The notes under the pieces are model-generated. The model did no database searches. It saw nothing but the letters and a program-made list of their open reading frames with translations, and had not been told where the DNA came from. Shown one piece after another: positions 9,188-18,909 of a stretch of 64,000 nucleotides of DNA. The stretch lies in contig JAYEPA010000110.1 in the NCBI GenBank assembly GCA_034723545.1, forward strand, positions 1,242 to 65,241, written 5' to 3'. A program made the position numbers and the translations under genes. The stretch's first letter is position 1. The number at the start of each line of letters is the position of its first letter. This stretch comes from Thermodesulfobacteriota bacterium (lineage in GTDB: Bacteria; Desulfobacterota; Desulfobulbia; Desulfobulbales; SURF-16).

Positions 9188-10483
9188 TCAGTCTCTTAAC
9201 GCTGGATTAAAATAGCCAAAGCGTAAATCTGGAAAAAGATTTTTCAACTTACTCAGCCAGTTCTGCATTCCCATGGGCTTTTGTTTGGGACGATACTGGA
9301 CGGTTTCAAGGTACCAGTCCGGATCCATATTTAGATTGCGCAACTGGATTAGATCAGGCCGATAGAGATTGATAAGATCGCAAAGCGCTTGAAATTCATC
9401 CGGGTCATCCGTAAAACCAGGCAGAATGAAATAATTGAGGGATACAAAGCGGCCTGCTTTTTTCATGACCAAAATTGATTCCAGGACGTTTTTAAAACTA
9501 AAATCTTTTGGTCGGTAGTAGAGGGTATGGCATCCCTTGCGGCTACTGTTTATGCTGACTCGGATGGAGTCGAGTCCGGCTGCGGCAAGCCGCTCCACCG
9601 CCGCCGGCAGACTGGCGTTGCTGTTGAGATTGATTGTCCCGCAGTCTGTCTGTTTGCGGATCAATCGTATTCCTTTTTCCAGTGTCTCGGCCTGGAGCAG
9701 TGGTTCCCCCTCGCAACCCTGACCGAAACTTACAACACCTCCTTTTACCTGATTGAGATGTGGCACGGCAATTTCAGCAATTTCTCCTGGAGAGGGCACG
9801 AAACGGATGCGATCCTGGGTGGAAGGGCAGCACCCCGAGGCTTGCAGTGAAATGCAGCCCACACATTTCGCATTACATGCCGGCGAGGTTGGCAAAGGGG
9901 CCTCAAAACGGTTGAGAAAAAAATTTTTCGCGGCAGGACAGCCATAGGTCAGGCAACATTTGCCAAGATGCTGAATGAGGCGGTTACGGGGAAATTTATT
10001 TAATTTTTTTACGGTTTTTTCTCGAAGCAACTGTGGATTGAAACCTGCGAAATCCTGCCTGGGATCATTATCACTACGAAAACCGCAGACCCAGAATTGA
10101 TCCTGATACCAGCCCACCGCAGTATAGGCAAAAAGCGGCAGCGGTATTGGCTCGGGCCTGATTTTTTCAAAGGCAGCGGTGTAAATCGCTGTATGGGCCG
10201 GCGCCATAAATGCCGCTACTGCCTGGATCCCTTCTCTAGCATCGTCAGGGCTGTTGTCAAGCAGAACAGGATCGCCGGTTTCCGGATCAATACCAATAGG
10301 CAGACGGTCCGGCAGGACAAAAAGATCGCTTCCCTCGGGCAGAGGGATCATTTCCGTGAGTTGTGGCTTGAAAAACCAGTGACCGCTTCGGCCGGCCATG
10401 GTGAGGCCCGGGAAATCCTTGATCTCACCCCTGCGATTAGCAAAGACAAGAGAGGGCTGCTTATCGGGATGAATCGGCTTCAT
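9188..10483 (-). CDS. Radical SAM enzyme with a roughly 190-aa N-terminal extension, function unknown
   Basis: CNAKCVGC (CX3CX2C) and GCEGEPLL motifs. Additional Cys clusters CCLTYGC and SGCCPS. Not RimO/MiaB-like by eye. Confidence 0.8.
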   Translation of the reverse strand: MKPIHPDKQPSLVFANRRGEIKDFPGLTMAGRSGHWFFKPQLTEMIPLPEGSDLFVLPDRLPIGIDPETGDPVLLDNSPDDAREGIQAVAAFMAPAHTAIYTAAFEKIRPEPIPLPLFAYTAVGWYQDQFWVCGFRSDNDPRQDFAGFNPQLLREKTVKKLNKFPRNRLIQHLGKCCLTYGCPAAKNFFLNRFEAPLPTSPACNAKCVGCISLQASGCCPSTQDRIRFVPSPGEIAEIAVPHLNQVKGGVVSFGQGCEGEPLLQAETLEKGIRLIRKQTDCGTINLNSNASLPAAVERLAAAGLDSIRVSINSSRKGCHTLYYRPKDFSFKNVLESILVMKKAGRFVSLNYFILPGFTDDPDEFQALCDLINLYRPDLIQLRNLNMDPDWYLETVQYRPKQKPMGMQNWLSKLKNLFPDLRFGYFNPALRD

Positions 10484-10598: not shown

Positions 10599-11030
10599 TT
10601 ACTGCCGGGGGCGAATTTGATTCATTACCGAATCCACTGCTTTATAAACATCAAGATCATCGCCAAAAATATCTTGAATTTTTGGGTGTTTAATCAGGTC
10701 TTCAACAATGTATTGGAGGAGATAAAGACTGATAAAATTCGCATCGGGCACAAGCTGTCTCACCGGGGCGATTTTAAACTGGATGTCAAACTCCTCCATG
10801 TCCTGGAGTTTTTGAAAAAGTGCTGCAAAAACTTCACGGATGGCACTATCGGAGGATGTTTCAATAATGTGTTGATCCAGGAGGCGCTGCACCAGCTTCA
10901 TCGCCAGTTCGTCAGCATATTTGCAGGCAGCCGACAACATGAAGCGTCTTTCTTTTTCCCGTTTCCTGTCAATGCTCCTTACAGCCCTGTCACCAGCACC
11001 GTAAGGATTGTGGGCATGATGGCCACCCAT
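10599..11030 (-). CDS. Hypothetical protein (about 143 aa)
   Basis: AGGAGA lies 7 nt upstream of ATG 11030. The ORF track extends to 11159, but that N-terminal part is AT-rich and not protein-like. The body is helical and acidic/basic. No family recognised. Confidence 0.5.
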   Translation of the reverse strand: MGGHHAHNPYGAGDRAVRSIDRKREKERRFMLSAACKYADELAMKLVQRLLDQHIIETSSDSAIREVFAALFQKLQDMEEFDIQFKIAPVRQLVPDANFISLYLLQYIVEDLIKHPKIQDIFGDDLDVYKAVDSVMNQIRPRQ

Positions 11031-11256
11031 ACGTATTTCTCCTGTAATGTAATAGTCTGTTATTTTAAAATTGTAAGATCTGAATTCTTGCGTACTTGTA
11101 CACTTTGTAAAGTAATTCAGCCACAATTTTTTCTTGTTATCTGGGAAGTTCCAAGTCAACGACGAAAAGCAGCGTGATGAGATTATTTTTGCCTGTCAAT
11201 TTCGTAACAGTTCACCAAGGGCTAAAATTTTTGTGGATACTCCTTATTGTAAAAGT

Positions 11257-11401: not shown

Positions 11402-11887
11402 TTACTCAATTTCATCCCGCAGCCATGCCTCGACCTCGGAGATGGTTGGCTGGCGTCCGGTACATTTAATTTCATCATTTATGATCAGGGCCGGGGTGCT
11501 GATCACGCCGTGACGCCAAATCTCATCAAGATCATGGATTTGATCAATATCCGCCTTGACTCCCAGACGCTGGAGGATATCAAAGATCATGCTGTTCAGT
11601 TTGTTACAGCTCACGCAACCGGGGCCGAGGATACGAATTGAAAGGCCTTGCTCATTGTTTTCCTCACTTGCACCGATATGTCGCAGATACTCCCGCTTCA
11701 GCGCCTCACGATAAGCGGTTTCAGCTTGGGGCGGGATATAATTTTGTCCGGCCATCTGTGAATAGATCAAATCAACGGCTTCCTGGACAGGTAGCCTCCT
11801 GCCTGCAGCCTCTTGAAGAGAAATATCCAGGCCAATTAAGCCGACGCTTGCGTTATCAATTTTAATGGTACGCTGATGTTGTTTCAT
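11402..11887 (-). CDS. Thioredoxin-fold protein (small redox-active-disulfide type) with an unknown 80-aa N-terminal domain
   Basis: C-terminal IRILGPGCVSCNKLNSMIFDILQRLGV...TPALIINDEIKCTGRQP is typical of the small glutaredoxin-like thioredoxin family. The gene starts 22 nt after the upstream helicase gene stop. Confidence 0.65.
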   Translation of the reverse strand: MKQHQRTIKIDNASVGLIGLDISLQEAAGRRLPVQEAVDLIYSQMAGQNYIPPQAETAYREALKREYLRHIGASEENNEQGLSIRILGPGCVSCNKLNSMIFDILQRLGVKADIDQIHDLDEIWRHGVISTPALIINDEIKCTGRQPTISEVEAWLRDEIE

Positions 11888-11909: not shown

Positions 11910-14900
11910 TTAAAACAGACTCAACTGCGTCGCTTTGGATTTCTTTTTTCTCTTTTGGTGGATGATTTGCAGGTCTTTTGCCGGGAGCTCCCTGATGAAT
12001 CGTGAAATATGCTGCCTGGCGGATTGTCCTCCACCTCGTCCGGTAGAACAGGAGAGGGTCAGTCTTTCCATGGCCCTGGTCATGCCCACATAAAAAAGAC
12101 GCCGCTCTTCTTCAATATCTGTCCGCTCAAAGGCAAGATAAGGGGTCAGCCCCTCTTCGAGACCGGTGATAAAGACCGACGGGAACTCCAACCCCTTGGC
12201 TCCGTGCAAAGTTACAAGAGTTACGGCCTCCGCCCTGTCGTCGTAAATGGTGGATGTCCGATTGTGTCTGAGATGAGCGGCGAAATCGTTCAGGGAACGG
12301 AAAACCATGGCAAGTTCAAGGAGTCTTTTTGCCTGGGGACAGTCCGGCTTGACATGAAGAAAAGACATTGCCGTTTTTAATACCGAAATCAAGCCATCCC
12401 CGCTCACTTTGCTGTTAATCTGTTCGAATTGACCTTTAATTTCTTTGATGATGGTCCGGGCTCTTGGGGGAAGATTTAGCTGGTCAAATCCGCTGAAAAA
12501 GTCAGTATCCGCAAGAGGCGGATGGTTTTCAATTTTACTTGTTGTAGCCGGGCCGATGCCGGGCATTTCTTTCAATAGATTAATGAAATCGACCGGTTCC
12601 GCTTTGCGGACGGCAATCTGCAGCCAATGATAGAGCGCTCTTATTTCTTTTTTCATGAAAAAAGGAGTGGCGCCGACGAGCTGGAAGGGGATCCCTCGTC
12701 GTTCCAGAGCCTCAGCCAGAGGAAGCGCCTGACGGGAAAGCCGGTACAAAACAGCAAAATCACTGAAACCCGTTTCACTTAACCCGTCACCGCCCCGGCC
12801 GCTGTTAATGGAAAAGCTGCTGATGCCGCCCATGGTCTCTTCAATGGTCTTGACAATAAATTCAGCTTCAGCCTTGGGAGATGTTGCCTGATAAAAACTG
12901 ATTTGACCAGGCATCCTGAGCTGGGGTTGCAGCCTGACATCACTGTGTATCGTGTTGTGACGGATCAATTCACTGGCTGACTGCAAAATAACAGGCGCGG
13001 AACGGTAATTACGATTCAGCGTCAAACACAAAGTCTCTTTATTTTCACTGAATTGAAAAAAGAAGTTGAGATTACTTCCCCGAAAAGCGTAAATTGCCTG
13101 GTCAGGATCGCCGATGGCAAACACGTGGGCGGATTCGGCCAGTATTTCGACAAGATCATACTGGGCCTGATTCAAATCCTGGAATTCATCAATAAAAAGA
13201 AAATGAACACTTTTTTTGACACGATCGGCAAATTCAATATCAGTCATCAGAAGACGGACGAAAAAAGGAATGACCGCCTCAAGATCGATAACCTTGCGCT
13301 GCTTCAATTCGGCAAAATAGTCCCGCAGGCGGGAGTCCATCACAGTGAGATCATTTGTGGCGGTTTGCAGCGTGCTGAGATGGGTGTCAATTGCCTTTTT
13401 AAGTTGTGTCAGTTCTTTTCCAGCAGTTGACGGAAAAAGATGACGCAGAACAAGATCCCGGTTTTCATCGCCCAGCACGGTAAGGTCCGTTTCTTTTTTG
13501 CGCAGCCAGCTCAGGCAAAAATTGTGAAAGGTACCGATAAAGACTTTTTCTCTATCCTTTCCGCATTCCCTGATGATGCGTTCTCTGACCTCATCGGCGG
13601 CCCGGTTGGTAAAGGTGATGACGGTTATGTTTTTCGGTGATTTTTTTTGTCTTAGAAGATGGGCGAGACGGGCCACCAGGGTAAAGGTCTTGCCGGTGCC
13701 TGGTCCTGCTGAAACAAGAATTCTCCCGGCCTGGGAGTCAATGGCTGTCTGCTGTTCCGGGTTGATTTTTTCTGTTTTTTGCTGGGGAATCTGAATTGTT
13801 TCAGTAGAAAAAAGTAATGGGGTAATATTTTTTTTCGCGCGACTTTTTCTTTTTTTTGGCCTTTTTCCGCCGAACAGACTGAGCTGACCGGCAAGGGCAT
13901 CAATCTCACCATCCTCGAAAACGTGGATCACGCCGAATTCCCCGTCAAAACCGGGTTTTTTAATCACCTTGTTGGCGCGGATTCTTTTAATCGCCTCACC
14001 AAGTACGGTTGAGAAACCGTTAATCTCTTCAACAGGCGTCTCCAGCAGGAGGGTGAATTCCGAACCGAAACGGGAAATCACCCGGCAATATTCCTTCATG
14101 ACTGTCTTGCTGTTAGGGCCATAACCGGCGATTTCTCCGAGTACTTCGGCCAGGGGAATAAGGCTGTGAAAGCCCGGTGAACCGGGCGGATAGAAGGGTT
14201 TTTTACGGTCAGCCAGATCATAAACCCGGTGACTGACGCCAACGGTCAACGGCCGGCCGCAGACTGGGCAGATTGCGTTGATCCTGCGGGTCTCCAAGGG
14301 CTCCAGGCAGACCTGACATTTTCGGTGGCCGTCAAGATGATACTTACCTTCCTCCGGATAAAATTCAATGGTGGACTGAAACCCTTTGGCCGGATTTTTC
14401 ATGGCCTCCCGCATGGCAAAAAAATTAAAATCCGTATCAAAGAGATTGGCCTCGCGGCCAAGTTTGCCTGGGGAATGACAGTCTGAATTGGATATCAACG
14501 TATAGCCGTCAAGGGCCGAGATCAGCCTGTTCATGTCCGGATCCGATGACAGGCCGGTTTCCAGGGCGAAGATATGGCTGGTGAGGTCTCCGTAACAATC
14601 CTCAATCCTGTCAAAACCGGATCTTGAGCCAAAAAGAGAAAACCAGGGAGTCCAGATATGGGCCGGAACCAGAAAACCCTTCGGACAGTTCTCCAGCAGG
14701 ATTTCTAGAAGATTACGGGAGTCAAGACCAAGAATGGGCCGACCATCGGATTCAATATTGCCGATTCCGGCAAGGGTGGAATTGATTCGTTCCACAGAGG
14801 CAAAGTCCGGGGCAAAAAGGAGATTATGGACCTTGCGAACCTGATCGTGCCGTTTATATATGTTGCTGATCTCGGAAGTAAGGACAAAACGCACCGGCCG

Positions 14901-15146
14901 CTCTTCAGGCGTGACTTGATCAAGAGCAGGGCTAACCTTTTCATCTTTCAGCCTGAAAAAACCCGGTTCGGCCGGAATCAGCTTTTCTTTCAGCTGCGAA
15001 AACCAACCTGGATGAGTAAAATCCCCGGTCCCGATGACCTGGATGCCCTTGACCCGAGCCCAGGCAAAGAGTCCGGCAAGGTTACTGGCCTTGCTGGTGG
15101 CCCTGGAAAAGAGAGAATGGATGTGGAGATCGGCTATGTAATTCAT
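11910..15146 (-). CDS. Endonuclease-Q-like PHP nuclease fused to a UvrD/PcrA-type SF1 helicase
   Basis: N-terminal about 420 aa: ADLHIHS, GTGDFTHPGW, NSDCHSPGKLGREANLF, GKYHLDGH, CPVCGRPLTVGVSHRV, IPLAEVLGEI, FGSEFTLL. Basic linker GGKRPKKRKSRAKK. Helicase motifs SAGPGTGKTFTL, IDEFQDLN, NYRS, LHGAKGLEF, FYVGMTRA. Confidence 0.85.
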   Translation of the reverse strand: MNYIADLHIHSLFSRATSKASNLAGLFAWARVKGIQVIGTGDFTHPGWFSQLKEKLIPAEPGFFRLKDEKVSPALDQVTPEERPVRFVLTSEISNIYKRHDQVRKVHNLLFAPDFASVERINSTLAGIGNIESDGRPILGLDSRNLLEILLENCPKGFLVPAHIWTPWFSLFGSRSGFDRIEDCYGDLTSHIFALETGLSSDPDMNRLISALDGYTLISNSDCHSPGKLGREANLFDTDFNFFAMREAMKNPAKGFQSTIEFYPEEGKYHLDGHRKCQVCLEPLETRRINAICPVCGRPLTVGVSHRVYDLADRKKPFYPPGSPGFHSLIPLAEVLGEIAGYGPNSKTVMKEYCRVISRFGSEFTLLLETPVEEINGFSTVLGEAIKRIRANKVIKKPGFDGEFGVIHVFEDGEIDALAGQLSLFGGKRPKKRKSRAKKNITPLLFSTETIQIPQQKTEKINPEQQTAIDSQAGRILVSAGPGTGKTFTLVARLAHLLRQKKSPKNITVITFTNRAADEVRERIIRECGKDREKVFIGTFHNFCLSWLRKKETDLTVLGDENRDLVLRHLFPSTAGKELTQLKKAIDTHLSTLQTATNDLTVMDSRLRDYFAELKQRKVIDLEAVIPFFVRLLMTDIEFADRVKKSVHFLFIDEFQDLNQAQYDLVEILAESAHVFAIGDPDQAIYAFRGSNLNFFFQFSENKETLCLTLNRNYRSAPVILQSASELIRHNTIHSDVRLQPQLRMPGQISFYQATSPKAEAEFIVKTIEETMGGISSFSINSGRGGDGLSETGFSDFAVLYRLSRQALPLAEALERRGIPFQLVGATPFFMKKEIRALYHWLQIAVRKAEPVDFINLLKEMPGIGPATTSKIENHPPLADTDFFSGFDQLNLPPRARTIIKEIKGQFEQINSKVSGDGLISVLKTAMSFLHVKPDCPQAKRLLELAMVFRSLNDFAAHLRHNRTSTIYDDRAEAVTLVTLHGAKGLEFPSVFITGLEEGLTPYLAFERTDIEEERRLFYVGMTRAMERLTLSCSTGRGGGQSARQHISRFIRELPAKDLQIIHQKRKKKSKATQLSLF

Positions 15147-15252
15147 GATACATTTTTGACATTTGTAGAGTTCATCATTAAGGTAGGAGGCATATTAAAT
15201 GGTTTAAAATGAGCTGTCCATGGTTTTAATATTTCCCTTACAGGAGTTGAAC

Positions 15253-16161
15253 ATGTCTGAATATATTGATGTCATCATTGTCGGTGCCGGTCCCGCCGGT
15301 TTACAGGCCGCTGTCCATGCAGCCAGAAAAAAGGCAAATGTCCTGATTCTGGGAAAACCCGAGCAATCTAATATTTATCGGGCCCATGTGGAGAACTATC
15401 TTTGCGTTGACGGTGTGACGGATGGGGGTGAAATGGTCACGATCGGTCTGGAGCAGGCCACCCGTTTCGGCGCCGAATTTGTGGAGGAGGATGTCCTTGG
15501 CATCGAACAGGAAGGTAATTTTTATATCGTCAGGTCGGAAAACAGAAAATACATCGCTCGCAGTGTTATTCTGGCAACCGGAACGTCGAAAAAAAAGCTG
15601 AAAGTCAAAGGTGAAAAAGAATTTACAGGCCGGGGAGTCAGTTACTGCGTAGATTGTGACGCCAATTTTTTTCGAAATGCCAAGGTCGCGGTGGTGGGCA
15701 ATGGCAGCGGTGCCGTGGACGGAGCCTTGACCCTTCTTAACTATGCCTCTGAGGTTTATCTTGTTGCCAAGGAACTTAATGTTTCACGGGGGTTAAGGGA
15801 GAGATTGTCCGTCAGCGAGGTGAAGCTAAAGGAAGGCGTCTGGCCCAGTGCAATCGCAGGTAAAAACAACGTGGAGTTCTTTATTCTTGATGATGGCTCT
15901 TCTCTTGAAGTAGAAGGGGTCTTTGTCGAGCTTGGCGCCAAGGGCGCCATTGAACTGGCCACAACCCTCGGGGTCACGCTTGACATGGAGACTTTCAGCC
16001 ATATAGAAGTAAACAGAAAGATGGAAACCAATCTGCCTGGGGTTTACGCTGCCGGTGACATCACCGGTCAGCCGCACCAGATGGCAAAAGCCGTGGGAGA
16101 GGGTTGCGTGGCAGGCTGGAATGCAGCCAATTATGTCAATAAGCTGAAAAGAAAAGAGTAG
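15253..16161 (+). CDS. Thioredoxin-disulfide-reductase-family FAD oxidoreductase
   Basis: VIIVGAGPAGLQAAVHAAR (FAD), SYCVDCDANFF (CxxC), VAVVGNGSGAVDGAL (NAD(P)H), GVYAAGDITG. AGGAG lies upstream of ATG 15253 (the ORF track start is 15220). Confidence 0.75.
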   Translation: MSEYIDVIIVGAGPAGLQAAVHAARKKANVLILGKPEQSNIYRAHVENYLCVDGVTDGGEMVTIGLEQATRFGAEFVEEDVLGIEQEGNFYIVRSENRKYIARSVILATGTSKKKLKVKGEKEFTGRGVSYCVDCDANFFRNAKVAVVGNGSGAVDGALTLLNYASEVYLVAKELNVSRGLRERLSVSEVKLKEGVWPSAIAGKNNVEFFILDDGSSLEVEGVFVELGAKGAIELATTLGVTLDMETFSHIEVNRKMETNLPGVYAAGDITGQPHQMAKAVGEGCVAGWNAANYVNKLKRKE

Positions 16162-16180: not shown

Positions 16181-16627
16181 ATGAATTTTATGGAGTTGGC
16201 CTTGATCGAGGCAGAAAAAGCGGCTGGCCGTGGAGAGGTTCCTATAGGCGCCGTACTTGTTGATTCGGAAGGTTATATACTGGCCGCGGACAGCAATCGA
16301 ACTATCGAACTCCATGATCCCTCCGCCCATGCCGAAATTCTCGTCATGCGGCGGGCTGGTGCAAAAACAGAAAATTACCGGCTCACCGGCACCACCCTTT
16401 ATGTGACGCTTGAGCCCTGCGTCATGTGCGCCGGAGCCATGGTTCATGCCCGTATTGACAGGTTGATTTTTGGCGCATTCGACCCCAAGGGCGGTGCTGT
16501 GCTGTCCTGCTATCAGGTCGGACAAGACAGAAATTTAAACCATTCATTTTCCGTGCAGTCCGGGGTGATGGCCGAAGAGTGCGCTTCTCTTCTTCGCTGT
16601 TTTTTTCAGCAGAGAAGAAAAAGGTAA
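16181..16627 (+). CDS. tadA: tRNA adenosine(34) deaminase
   Basis: HAEILVMR and TLEPCVMCAGAM zinc-deaminase motifs, about 148 aa. Confidence 0.9.
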   Translation: MNFMELALIEAEKAAGRGEVPIGAVLVDSEGYILAADSNRTIELHDPSAHAEILVMRRAGAKTENYRLTGTTLYVTLEPCVMCAGAMVHARIDRLIFGAFDPKGGAVLSCYQVGQDRNLNHSFSVQSGVMAEECASLLRCFFQQRRKR

Positions 16628-16714
16628 TTTTTTACTAAAAATTTTCATTTTTTTCTTTCAAAACCATCTTTTTAAGGGTAAGTTATCCCGCTTGATTGGG
16701 TTAATTCCCAACAA

Positions 16715-16802
16715 GGAGAGGTGACCGAGAGGCCGAAGGTGCACGACTGGAAATCGTGTGTACGGCAACGTACCGAGGGTTCGAATCCCTCCTTCTCCGC
16801 CA
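16715..16802 (+). tRNA. tRNA-Ser (anticodon GGA)
   Basis: GGAGAGGTGACCGAGAGGCCGAAGGTGCACGACTGGAAATCGTGT...GGGTTCGAATCCCTCCTTCTCCGCCA. It has a class II long variable arm, the acceptor stem pairs, and CCA is encoded. Confidence 0.9.
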
Positions 16803-16818
16803 AATTTGATATCGGTTT

Positions 16819-16931
16819 GATAGCCAGGTCCCGCGCAACAGAGGCTCATGAACTCCGTCAGGTCCGGGAGGAAGCAGCGGTAATGAATCCCTTCTGTGTG
16901 CCGCGGGGGTGCCTGGCTATCATTTTTTTTA
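16819..16931 (+). ncRNA. ffs: Signal recognition particle RNA (small 4.5S type)
   Basis: Conserved GTCAGGTCCGGGAGGAAGCAGC domain IV motif. The 5' GATAGCCAGG pairs with the 3' CCTGGCTATC, and a T-run follows. Confidence 0.8.
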
Positions 16932-16955
16932 CCTTTGATGAACCCGTAAAAAGTC

Positions 16956-17061
16956 TTTTTTTCACCACAGAGCACACAGAGCACACAGAGAGCACTGAGA
17001 ATTTTTTTTATTATAATTAGTTGTCTCAGTGCGCTCAGTGTACTCTGTGGTTAGTTTTTAC
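16956..17061. repeat. CACAGAG-type hairpin repeat
   Basis: GTAAAAAGTC...CCACAGAGCACACAGAGCACACAGAGAGCACTGAG / CTCAGTGCGCTCAGTGTACTCTGTGG...TTTTTAC. Close homologue of the copy at 48350-48460. Confidence 0.7.
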
Positions 17062-17088
17062 GAAATCATCACCTTTCCCCTGTGATGC

Positions 17089-18909
17089 ATGTCCTATCTT
17101 GTCCTTGCCAGAAAATGGCGACCTCAGCATTTTAATGAAGTGATCGGCCAGCAACCGGTTGTCCGCACGCTGCAAAACGGCTTGAAGCGGAACCGGGTGC
17201 CCCACGCCATGCTGTTCAGCGGTGTAAGAGGGGTTGGAAAGACCACTCTTGCCCGGATCATGGCCAAGGCTTTGAACTGCCGGAGTGAGAAAGAAGACCG
17301 GCCCTGCAATCAATGTGATTCATGCCTGGAAATCACAAAGGGTTCTTCCGTAGATCTCCATGAAATCGACGGCGCTTCAAACCGCGGTATCCAGGAGATC
17401 CGTGAACTTAAGGAAAATATACGTTTTTTCCCAACCAGGTGTCGCTATAAAATTATCATTATTGATGAAGTCCACATGCTCACAACCGAGGCCTTTAATG
17501 CTTTGCTCAAGACCTTGGAAGAACCGCCCAAACATGTTTTTTTCATGTTTGCCACGACTGAGCTGCATAAAATCCCCATCACCATTCTTTCCCGATGTCA
17601 ACGTTACGAGTTGAAGAGAATCCCGTTTGCCGAGCTTCACGCTTTTTTCAAAAAAGTTGCTGAAAAGGAGGGTGTGGCTGTTTCCGCCAAGGCCTTATCC
17701 GTCATTACGCGTGAAGCGGACGGCAGCGTTAGGGATGGATTGAGTCTGCTGGATCAGATGTTTTCCTTTGGCGGTGACCAGGTGAGAGATGAGGACGTAA
17801 CCGAGGTCCTTGGTCTTGTTGATCATACGGTTTTTGAAAAACTGGCTGCAAGTCTGCTAAGCGGCGATCTGGCCCAGGGTCTTGAGTTGCTTGACCGGAC
17901 CTATCGAGCCGGCATTGACATAAAGAGGTTTGCCAGCGATCTCTTAAGTTTTTTCAGGACTGTCCTGATCTGTAAGACAAGCCCCCATCCCGGTGAGCTG
18001 CTTGATATCTCGGATATGGAGCTTCAGGCGGCGGAAAAAATCGCGGCCGGTCAGAGCGCGGAAACACTGTATCAGTATTTTCATCTTCTCCTTCAAGGGA
18101 TTGAGAAGATGCATTATTCCCCGCGTCCCAGGATGATTCTTGAAATGGCCCTGATCAAGGCAGCTCAGTCCGGTCAGGTTGTTCCTGCCTCAGTCCTGCT
18201 TGAACGCTTTGATGATTGCTTTCGTCAGTCACTTTCTTTACCCATACAGCAGGTTGCTCAAACAGAACCTGTTGTCGTTGAAACGAATCAGCCAGGGGAT
18301 ATCAAAGAGAAAGATGGCTTAGATTCACGGGAACCGTCCGCAGTTAAAGAGAAAGTGAGTGAGAAGCAAATTCTTTTCCCAAAACCGGCGAAGATAGAAA
18401 AGGATGAGAACAGGGCATCTTCTCCCAAAGCAGAGAAAGAAAAGTCAGCCTCAGGGGACGAGGAAAAGACAGAAATAACTCAACCCGAACCCTCCGGAGC
18501 AAAATCGCTTGCCCCTGCCACGCATCAGAAGGATGTCCGGAAAAACTGGAATGATTTCGCCGCCTATGTCAAGGAGCGAAAACCGTGGATGTCCCATGTT
18601 TTGCAGCTGTGTGACCGGGTCGAGGAGCATGATAACGCCCTGATTATGATATTTTCACAGCCGACGGACTCTAAGATCCTCGAGCAGAGTGAAAACATGA
18701 AATTGTTGACCCGCTATGTCCAGGATTTTTTTCAAAAGGAGTTGAAGCCGAGGCTGCGGGTACGGGGGGGAGAGGATGCTTCCGGAAACAGTGACGACAG
18801 TGTCCGTGAAGAACGACGCGCTCTGGCTAATGATCCCCTTGTCCGCATGGCAACGGAGGTCTTTGGCGGCCGGGTGGCTAGTGTACGAACGGGCCCGAAA
18901 TTCAGATAA
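17089..18909 (+). CDS. dnaX: DNA polymerase III subunit gamma/tau
   Basis: HAMLFSGVRGVGKTTLARI (Walker A), IIIIDEVHMLT, SRCQRYELKR. Low-complexity K/E-rich linker before the C-terminal domain. Confidence 0.9.
   Translation: MSYLVLARKWRPQHFNEVIGQQPVVRTLQNGLKRNRVPHAMLFSGVRGVGKTTLARIMAKALNCRSEKEDRPCNQCDSCLEITKGSSVDLHEIDGASNRGIQEIRELKENIRFFPTRCRYKIIIIDEVHMLTTEAFNALLKTLEEPPKHVFFMFATTELHKIPITILSRCQRYELKRIPFAELHAFFKKVAEKEGVAVSAKALSVITREADGSVRDGLSLLDQMFSFGGDQVRDEDVTEVLGLVDHTVFEKLAASLLSGDLAQGLELLDRTYRAGIDIKRFASDLLSFFRTVLICKTSPHPGELLDISDMELQAAEKIAAGQSAETLYQYFHLLLQGIEKMHYSPRPRMILEMALIKAAQSGQVVPASVLLERFDDCFRQSLSLPIQQVAQTEPVVVETNQPGDIKEKDGLDSREPSAVKEKVSEKQILFPKPAKIEKDENRASSPKAEKEKSASGDEEKTEITQPEPSGAKSLAPATHQKDVRKNWNDFAAYVKERKPWMSHVLQLCDRVEEHDNALIMIFSQPTDSKILEQSENMKLLTRYVQDFFQKELKPRLRVRGGEDASGNSDDSVREERRALANDPLVRMATEVFGGRVASVRTGPKFR

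Follow-up and report, generated by a model that had tools for sequence, protein, structure and literature searches.

Endonuclease Q fused to a UvrD-type helicase: a bacterial long form carrying two beta-clamp-type motifs

This study concerns one gene in a stretch of 64,000 nucleotides, referred to here as the window, from a Thermodesulfobacteriota metagenome-assembled genome (assembly GCA_034723545.1, positions 1,242 to 65,241 of the 81-kb contig JAYEPA010000110.1). The gene encodes a protein of 1078 residues in which an endonuclease Q (EndoQ) module is followed by a UvrD-type helicase; it has an exact database match, MEA3547164.1, annotated as 'UvrD-helicase domain-containing protein'. Comparison with homologous sequences indicates that this fusion is genuine, ancient and very widespread, and that it is the dominant bacterial form of EndoQ; both modules are complete, with strong purifying selection on the catalytic residues. 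The protein contains two clamp-type motifs that were not mentioned in the first-pass annotation of this DNA, which had been made from the sequence letters alone. We see about an even chance that long-form EndoQ acts as a clamp-tethered excision enzyme, which would first nick DNA at deoxyuridine (dU), deoxyinosine (dI) and apurinic/apyrimidinic (AP) sites and then unwind it. The parts of the gene, in window coordinates and with the evidence for each in parentheses (pLDDT, predicted local distance difference test of the AlphaFold2 model), are as follows.

11910..15146, minus strand: whole open reading frame (ORF), 1078 aa plus stop codon, ATG start, EndoQ-UvrD fusion, MEA3547164.1 (ORF list)
13893..15146, minus strand: Endonuclease Q module, residues 1-418 (phmmer match to PfuEndoQ, TIGR00375, Foldseek, residue conservation)
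13872..13886, minus strand: internal beta-clamp-type motif QLSLF, residues 421-425 (translation, column conservation, pLDDT <50)
13773..13871, minus strand: Lys/Arg-rich flexible linker, residues 426-458, GGKRPKKRKSRAKKNITPLLFSTETIQIPQQKT (translation, pLDDT 30-47)
11952..13772, minus strand: helicase of the superfamily 1A (SF1A) UvrD/PcrA/Rep type, residues 459-1065 (Pfam, match to PcrA 1pjr, Foldseek, motif conservation)
11913..11951, minus strand: disordered basic C-terminal tail, residues 1066-1078, RKKKSKATQLSLF (translation, pLDDT <50)
11913-11927, minus strand: terminal beta-clamp-type motif QLSLF, residues 1074-1078 (translation, pLDDT <50)

The endonuclease Q and helicase modules

The N-terminal half of the protein aligns over residues 5-412 with residues 5-385 of PfuEndoQ, the archaeal enzyme of P. 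furiosus (phmmer, PDB 5zb8/7k30, E 3e-55), and since the second-best PDB match of this half is at E 0.37 only, no rival family of the polymerase and histidinol phosphatase (PHP) type presents itself. A Pfam scan gave neither a PHP nor any other significant family match on this half. With no further significant match in PDB or Pfam, other PHP families were rejected, and the assignment to EndoQ rather than another PHP family, made by eye in the first-pass annotation, is upheld by the PDB sequence search as well as by the structure search. The AlphaFold2 model, built on a 50-sequence alignment, has a mean pLDDT of 81 and a predicted template-modelling score (pTM) of 0.56, and consists of two well-folded modules and a disordered connection, with pLDDT <50 for residues 421-458 and 1066-1078. 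Its N-terminal half superimposes in Foldseek on 5zb8 with a template-modelling score (TMt) of 0.87-0.88 and a root-mean-square deviation (rmsd) of 2.8 Å over about 417 columns, and on 7k30 with a TMt of 0.84, matching the three-domain EndoQ fold including the C-terminal helical domain. The NCBIfam EndoQ model, TIGR00375, is covered from position 2 to 374 of 374 with 173.7 bits (E 7e-51); the curated cutoff of 326.6 bits is not reached, and by this criterion the protein belongs to a divergent EndoQ subfamily.

The functional residues of EndoQ have been defined in PfuEndoQ, in which the metal ligands are H8, H10, E76, H84, H139 and D193 (together with H195), the lesion pocket is formed by H139, T142, E167, L168, G169, L170, N191 and D193, and also S171, and mutagenesis marks these residues as essential (Miyazono, 2018). 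We compared these positions with two sets of sequences used throughout this study, a close set of 119 homologues (118 of them full-length, for the terminal motif) and a cross-phylum set of 61 fused proteins. The full set of metal ligands has counterparts in the window protein, namely H8, H10, E92, H107, H163, D222 and H224, all conserved to at least 99% in the close set and invariant in the cross-phylum set. The pocket counterparts H163, T166, E196, G198, L199, S200, N220 and D222 are likewise kept, as is the counterpart of W144, all of them at least 99% conserved among the close homologues and invariant across phyla. Seven of the eight pocket positions are thus the same, the single change being L168 to T197, and this threonine is invariant throughout the bacterial family.

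The zinc-binding domain differs in one point. PfuEndoQ uses four cysteine ligands, C249, C252, C268 and C271, including a CPxCG motif. The N-terminal half of the window protein has a zinc ribbon with CPVCG (14262-14327, minus strand, residues 274-295), in which H274 occupies the position of the archaeal Cys249. C280 looks like a CxxC partner, but it is only 71% conserved, whereas H274 is conserved to 98-100% and is for this reason taken as the first ligand; the set is thus most likely H274, C277, C293 and C296, an HCCC variant of the C4 site. Taken as a whole, the module shares with archaeal EndoQ (PfuEndoQ PF1551, TkoEndoQ TK0887) the layout of PHP catalytic, zinc-binding and C-terminal helical domains, with identical metal ligands and a nearly identical pocket at 33-37% sequence identity, and differs from it in the histidine at position 274 in place of cysteine, the threonine in place of L168 and the sub-cutoff TIGR00375 score. 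Beyond the archaeal enzyme lie an extra 650 residues with the linker, the helicase and the second clamp motif. From the residues retained, the window protein would be expected to nick DNA 5' of dU, dI and AP sites.

The C-terminal half had been described in the first-pass annotation as a complete SF1 helicase of the UvrD/PcrA/Rep type, and we find motifs Q and I-VI to be present and the fold to be matched. Residues 455-1066 align with PcrA (1pjr, E 7e-71) and residues 459-872 with D. radiodurans UvrD (E about 6e-63), Rep too being matched from residue 459 onward; the Pfam models UvrD-helicase (residues 462-702, E 1e-54), UvrD_C (E 6e-45) and AAA_19 all score above their cutoffs. The helicase motifs are Q (Q465), I (AGPGTGKT, 480-487), Ia, Ib, II (DEFQD, 653-657), III (GDPDQAIYAFRG), IV (NYRS), V (HGAKGLEF) and VI (VGMTRA). 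The 2B domain also contains a GIG motif. Across the many phyla of the cross-phylum set, the core residues of the helicase motifs do not vary. In the model this half matches the four-subdomain 1A/1B/2A/2B fold, with TMt 0.73-0.76 and an rmsd of about 5 Å to the UvrD-DNA complexes 2is1, 2is6 and 4c30. The NCBIfam equivalog models, in contrast, give 321 bits against a cutoff of 911 for PcrA, 312 against 951 for Rep and 259-271 against 965-1144 for UvrD (259-321 against 911-1168 overall), and by these scores the helicase half is orthologous to none of the three. The alignment with PcrA stops at residue 653 of 724, and beyond residue 1065 of the window protein there is only a disordered tail of 13 residues, so that neither the PcrA alignment nor the model contains a counterpart of the Tudor-like C-terminal domain of PcrA and UvrD. 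That domain is the region with which PcrA and UvrD interact with RNA polymerase and UvrB.

These features bear on the reading that we are simply looking at the lineage's general UvrD/PcrA/Rep helicase, serving nucleotide excision repair, mismatch repair or replication restart, which has acquired an EndoQ whose activity belongs to an unrelated pathway. The best matches of the C-terminal half, in sequence and in fold, are indeed PcrA, UvrD and Rep. The scores, however, stay at 258-321 bits against equivalog cutoffs of 911-1168, the Tudor-like domain gives way to the short tail, and the two halves co-evolve: their pairwise identities correlate with r = 0.86 over 1891 pairs, from which we conclude that they travel together as a unit. 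We therefore regard a general helicase with an unrelated nuclease attached as quite improbable. Compared with UvrD, PcrA and Rep themselves (2is6, 1pjr, 1uaa), the window protein shares the helicase motifs, the 1A/1B/2A/2B fold and the GIG motif at 26-29% identity, and is distinguished by its N-terminal nuclease, its basic tail with a clamp motif and the missing Tudor-like domain. The SF1A helicases UvrD, PcrA and Rep have 3'->5' polarity, and theirs is the family that in nucleotide excision and mismatch repair starts unwinding at nicks; the helicase half is predicted to translocate and unwind in the same direction in an ATP-dependent manner. A UvrD-like SF1A motor and a nuclease also share one polypeptide in AddA, RecB and AdnB, but there the nuclease is a C-terminal PD-(D/E)XK domain that acts at DNA ends in double-strand-break resection, within heteromeric enzymes and without lesion-specific nicking; matches to these proteins are much weaker (E 1e-36 or worse, TMt about 0.33).

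The first-pass annotation had placed nuclease and helicase in one ORF, and the 1078 codons do run uninterrupted, with no stop or frameshift between the halves; all of the motifs it quoted can be read in the translation, those of the N-terminal half (DLHIHS, GTGD, SDCHSPGKLGRE, GKYHLDGH, CPVCG, PLAEVLGEI, FGSE) as well as the linker GGKRPKKRKSRAKK and the helicase motifs GPGTGKT, DEFQD, NYRS, GAKGLEF and VGMTRA. One might still suspect that two genes were joined by a sequencing or assembly error, or that the N-terminal half is a PHP protein other than EndoQ, considering the origin of the stretch in a metagenome-assembled genome, a TIGR00375 score (174 bits) under the curated cutoff (327) and the empty Pfam PHP result. 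Against this stand the same architecture in more than 120 clusters, including those from complete genomes of Thiovibrio, Sorangium and Ca. Electrothrix, the conservation of the junction sequence itself among close homologues, and EndoQ as the sole significant PDB match of the N-terminal half (E 3e-55, the runner-up being at 0.37). A frameshift or assembly artefact is ruled out by how many full-length homologues there are and by the conserved junction, and we reject this explanation, leaving it a practically negligible probability.

The junction, the tail and their clamp-type motifs

Between the two halves the first-pass annotation had seen a basic linker, which is there in the form of the Lys/Arg-rich residues 426-458; it has no secondary structure in the AlphaFold2 model, and its length and sequence vary among homologues. 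Ahead of this linker, directly after the last EndoQ element, stands the pentapeptide QLSLF, and the same pentapeptide forms the final five residues of the protein, where the basic tail that carries it stands in for the Tudor-like domain of PcrA and UvrD. Both copies fit QL[DS]LF, the bacterial beta-clamp-binding consensus (Shiraishi, 2016, Sci Rep 6:25532), and each lies in a segment predicted to be disordered (pLDDT <50). The terminal copy is strongly kept among the close homologues, 111 of the 118 full-length ones having Q[LMIV]x[LM]F within their last 8 residues, as against about 0.03 occurrences per protein elsewhere. The columns of the junction are also conserved in the close set (G420 99%, Q421 97%, L424 93%, F425 99%). 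Across phyla, 39 of the 61 fused proteins have the terminal motif in its strict pattern and 58 of 61 in a looser one, the version in Actinobacteria being QLRLL, while the junction motif decays to an xxxLF core (Q 44%, L 77%, F 79%).

One of the stand-alone EndoQ forms found in our survey (L070, 428 aa) terminates exactly in QLALF, a hint that the motif now at the junction once closed the C-terminus of an EndoQ without a helicase. Archaeal EndoQ likewise has a sliding-clamp motif right after its helical domain, a C-terminal PCNA-interacting protein (PIP) box of sequence QRTLLQYI as compared with QLSLF here, and the junction QLSLF is at the equivalent place. The archaeal PIP box binds PCNA with a dissociation constant (KD) of 55 nM and is required for the stimulation of cleavage by PCNA (Shiraishi, 2016). 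By their fit to the consensus, both QLSLF motifs of the window protein are candidates for docking on the beta clamp (DnaN).

Distribution, inheritance and gene context

Among 5.8 billion proteins searched there are at least 120 full-length clusters of 1060-1110 aa and 53-94% identity from Desulfobulbaceae, Desulfurivibrionaceae and Thiovibrio, complete genomes included; the precomputed domain lists of all these homologues carry PF27218.1, a family that presumably covers the EndoQ region. The EndoQ module alone, compared by profile-free HMMER with 1.84 billion representatives at 50% identity, found 3685 relatives, 1064 of them at E <=1e-30; among the best 150, 126 are at least 950 aa long, and the shorter ones mostly resemble contig-end fragments. 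In a scan of 185,579 species genomes the module was present in at least 600, and the best 80 loci of these were taken for a locus survey. They span more than 12 phyla, with Thermodesulfobacteriota (Geobacter, Ca. Electrothrix, Desulfovibrio), Bacteroidota, Verrucomicrobiota, Melainabacteria, Chloroflexota, Alphaproteobacteria, Myxococcota (Sorangium), Planctomycetota, Actinomycetota (Streptomyces, Saccharopolyspora), Clostridia, Acidobacteriota, Binatia, Spirochaetota and Rhodothermaceae represented. The fused form dominates in this survey of fused and split architectures, which the first-pass annotation had called for: 67 of the 80 loci, or 67 of the 78 informative ones, encode nuclease and helicase in a single ORF, two loci being too truncated for a call. 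In three loci (L040, L064, L066) the helicase is directly downstream or frameshifted, and in eight (L005, L008, L010, L015, L034, L042, L070, L073) EndoQ is truly stand-alone, with 417-454 aa.

We built a neighbour-joining tree of the EndoQ modules with PfuEndoQ as the root; its clades follow phyla, suggesting largely vertical inheritance, and the stand-alone forms are scattered within fused clades. From this nesting, the fused state looks ancestral in this bacterial group, with repeated loss of the helicase. One of the stand-alone loci, L005, is on a 6-kb contig (JBAYZR010000225.1) binned as 'Pedobacter sp.'; its EndoQ is 67% identical to that of the window and sister to Geobacter argillaceus, and the contig looks like a mis-binned one.

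Bacterial relatives of EndoQ have been noted before, and the rarity or novelty of the fusion implied by the first-pass annotation does not hold, with more than 12 phyla and at least 600 species genomes concerned and with long homologues tabulated already in 2016. Homologues in Bacillus and Desulfovibrio were noted first (Shiraishi, 2015), and beta-clamp motifs were then described at the C-termini of bacterial homologues, of which 10 short (405-464 aa) and 34 long ones (945-1244 aa) are listed in Supplementary Figure S1 of that study (Shiraishi, 2016, Sci Rep 6:25532). The long ones end in a QLxLF-type motif, which is QLSLF in Desulfobulbus japonicus WP_028582461 (1096 aa), and include Geobacter metallireducens WP_004512662 (1075 aa), Desulfovibrio vulgaris WP_012612878 (1244 aa) and proteins of Sorangium cellulosum, Zymomonas mobilis, Saccharopolyspora and Opitutaceae; the word 'helicase' is absent from the text (Shiraishi, 2016). 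The window protein is a further member of this long-form group, sharing its length class, its terminal QLxLF and an overlapping taxonomy, and the Geobacter, Desulfovibrio and Sorangium loci of the present survey are EndoQ-helicase fusions as it is. The earlier study gives the terminal motif only, whereas the junction motif, the invariant catalytic sets and the extent of the family come from the present analysis. New here, in addition, are the recognition of the helicase half and of its completeness, the HCCC variant of the zinc site, an estimate of how large the family is and how many phyla it reaches, and evidence that helicase loss gives rise to short forms.

The EndoQ enzymes that have been assayed are all short, those of B. 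pumilus and B. subtilis and the archaeal ones of P. furiosus, T. kodakarensis and M. acetivorans. According to texts that cite the work, the stand-alone Bacillus enzymes nick 5' of dU, dI and AP sites as bacterial proteins of about 400 aa without a helicase; they are distant from the window module, to which a Brevibacillus homologue is 27% identical. A classification of EndoQ into three families, two of them bacterial, 'based on the domain organization', is ascribed to Shiraishi (2017) in the account given by Miyazono (2018). In that classification stand-alone Bacillus EndoQ belongs to a different family than the window protein. One of the two bacterial families is said to be the helicase-fused form.

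The genes around the fusion gene in the window are the following.

9188-10483, minus strand: radical-SAM (S-adenosylmethionine) protein, 431 aa, next after the 186-aa ORF
10599-11159, minus strand: 186-aa ORF, without a match in Pfam or PADLOC and without a homologue among the 80 related loci
11402-11887, minus strand: Thioredoxin_3-family gene, 161 aa, 22 bp downstream of the fusion gene
15220-16161, plus strand: thioredoxin-reductase-like gene, upstream of the fusion gene and divergent
16181-18909, plus strand: housekeeping cluster of tadA, tRNA-Ser, signal recognition particle (SRP) RNA and dnaX, upstream of the fusion gene and divergent
16715-16802: tRNA-Ser(GGA)
16822-16921: SRP RNA (ffs)
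17089-18909, plus strand: dnaX

The arrangement of thioredoxin-family, thioredoxin-reductase-like, tadA and dnaX genes is shared only with the two closest relatives (L001, L003), and for this reason the adjacency of the Thioredoxin_3 gene probably does not mean functional linkage. We note a homologue cluster (P0110, 1254 aa) in which a Thioredoxin_3 domain is appended to the end of the EndoQ-helicase. The proximity of tadA, a gene of the tRNA adenosine deaminase family, to a nuclease for deaminated bases is probably a coincidence, given that tadA-ffs-dnaX is an ordinary gene order. All-against-all clustering of the ORFs within 6-kb flanks of the 80 loci revealed no neighbour common to more than six of them, the larger clusters being shadow ORFs inside the gene, and conserved operon partners were rejected on this basis. 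What does recur is a dnaN ORF for the beta sliding clamp, which adjoins the fusion gene in 6 of the 80 loci and in two phyla, upstream and divergent in five (L026, L031, L041, L067, L077) and downstream and convergent in one (L021). This adjacency is suggestive alongside the clamp motifs, but it may merely reflect origin-proximal gene order.

Mobile elements hardly figure in the distribution. The EndoQ module had no match in 50,697 phage genomes; among 72,556 plasmids there was a single weak match, of 27% identity, to a stand-alone 'endonuclease Q family protein' on a 733-kb Brevibacillus replicon. The housekeeping neighbours, the near-absence from phages and plasmids and the phylum-like tree together argue for a chromosomal housekeeping gene. 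This has to be set against the thought that the fusion is an anti-phage or anti-foreign-DNA system, which would nick and then unwind or degrade uracil-containing or deaminated DNA such as that of dU-DNA phages or of targets hit by deaminase toxins. Defence systems often contain fusions of a nuclease with a helicase, the C-terminal half matches PADLOC models of the GajB/DRT type with E down to 3e-71, and a suggested antiviral part for Bacillus EndoQ, which is Ugi-insensitive, is relayed in a review. The PADLOC matches are, however, of a generic UvrD-fold kind (239 bits, as compared with 321 for PcrA) and none falls on the EndoQ half; the gene has no defence-island neighbours and no GajA-type partner, its neighbours being tadA, ffs, dnaX and thioredoxin-family genes without PADLOC matches. 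The module is found in 0 of 50,697 phage genomes and 1 of 72,556 plasmids, its tree follows phyla, and the conserved clamp motifs point to the replication and repair machinery of the host. The assignment to a defence system was rejected on account of the generic helicase matches and the near-absence from phages and plasmids, and we consider such a role very improbable.

A nick-then-unwind scenario and its alternatives

If the two modules act in one pathway, the following course of events can be considered. The EndoQ module would flip out a deaminated or missing base (dU, dI, deoxyxanthosine or an AP site) and cut the phosphodiester directly 5' of the lesion, generating a 3'-OH and a lesion-carrying 5'-phosphate. 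The tethered UvrD-type 3'->5' helicase would then load at the nick, most likely tracking on the intact strand, and peel off the lesion-bearing 5' end, exposing the 3'-OH for resynthesis. The two QLxLF motifs might hold the enzyme on the beta sliding clamp throughout, allowing the 3'-OH to be handed to a polymerase, after which a 5' nuclease and ligase would complete the repair. Docking on the clamp, a parallel to archaeal EndoQ with its stimulatory PIP-box tether to PCNA, would bring the enzyme to newly replicated or clamp-marked DNA beside polymerase and ligase, and the tandem clamp motifs could mediate a hand-off among nuclease, helicase and polymerase on one clamp dimer. Displacement of a strand from a 5' incision is what UvrD does in nucleotide excision repair. 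A helicase step after the EndoQ nick had in fact been postulated already (Shiraishi, 2015, Figure 10; also in a review).

In support of this scenario we can point to the EndoQ identity, the intact sites, both folds, the co-inheritance of the halves, the clamp motifs, the archaeal precedent and the housekeeping context. The first-pass annotation had imagined a self-contained nick-and-unwind enzyme, and we find the idea plausible and the best explanation at hand, but beyond the reach of computation: what we infer is the nicking specificity, the loading and polarity of the helicase at the nick, the binding to the clamp and the coupling of the activities.

Several observations weigh against nick-then-unwind coupling and need to be kept in mind. 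The internal clamp motif is, by the alignments, degenerate beyond the Desulfobulbia-type clade. With the helicase half scoring far under the equivalog cutoffs, the properties of UvrD, PcrA and Rep are not simply transferable to it. The disorder of the 33-residue linker and the pTM of 0.56 mean that no fixed geometry supports a hand-off at the nick. The helicase half diverges faster than the nuclease half (mean identity 38% against 58%), and the eight stand-alone forms nested among fused ones imply that the nuclease is evidently able to work without the helicase. Across the 80 loci there is no conserved flap nuclease, polymerase or ligase neighbour. Finally, just as the first-pass annotation knew of no characterised EndoQ-helicase, no biochemical study of a long-form EndoQ was found in the full-text literature, with Shiraishi (2017), Shi (2021, PNAS) and Shiraishi and Iwai (2020) outside its scope.

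Some of the same observations could be accommodated by a helicase that serves as a turnover or scanning motor instead, driving an ATP-dependent search for lesions along DNA or behind the replisome on the clamp, or stripping EndoQ off its nicked product, as UvrD strips UvrC in nucleotide excision repair; strand displacement by a polymerase would then remove the lesion. The domains, their conservation and the clamp motifs are equally compatible with such a motor, the flexible linker sets no geometry between nick and helicase, stand-alone EndoQ forms exist and that of B. pumilus is active alone, and the archaeal pathway model requires only a strand-displacing polymerase and Fen1. On the other hand, pure turnover does not obviously demand a covalent fusion kept across more than 12 phyla, and enzymes of the UvrD family are known to start unwinding at nicks. 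The present data do not separate this motor from excision-type unwinding, but we consider it rather unlikely.

Returning to nick-then-unwind excision, one may go a step further and think of long-form EndoQ as an excision-repair machine that stands apart from the base excision, nucleotide excision and mismatch repair pathways and occurs across more than 12 phyla, with recognition, incision and eviction coupled on the clamp in one polypeptide. We offer this broader proposal tentatively, as a possibility that we would on balance lean against.

Lastly, irrespective of the details of the mechanism, the distribution alone changes the picture of this enzyme family. EndoQ is usually described as an archaeal enzyme that is present in only 'a few bacteria', and the occurrence of a helicase-fused, clamp-motif form in hundreds of bacterial species of many phyla puts the emphasis the opposite way. 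In annotation terms, a large family now labelled 'UvrD-helicase domain-containing protein' gains a more fitting name and a function that can be put to the test, and the long form is at hand in tractable hosts such as Geobacter, Desulfovibrio vulgaris, Zymomonas mobilis, Streptomyces and Sorangium. Should nicking and unwinding prove to be coupled, these bacteria would possess a compact route, contained in one protein, for the excision of uracil, hypoxanthine and AP sites, and the fusion would supply the helicase step postulated in models of EndoQ-initiated repair.

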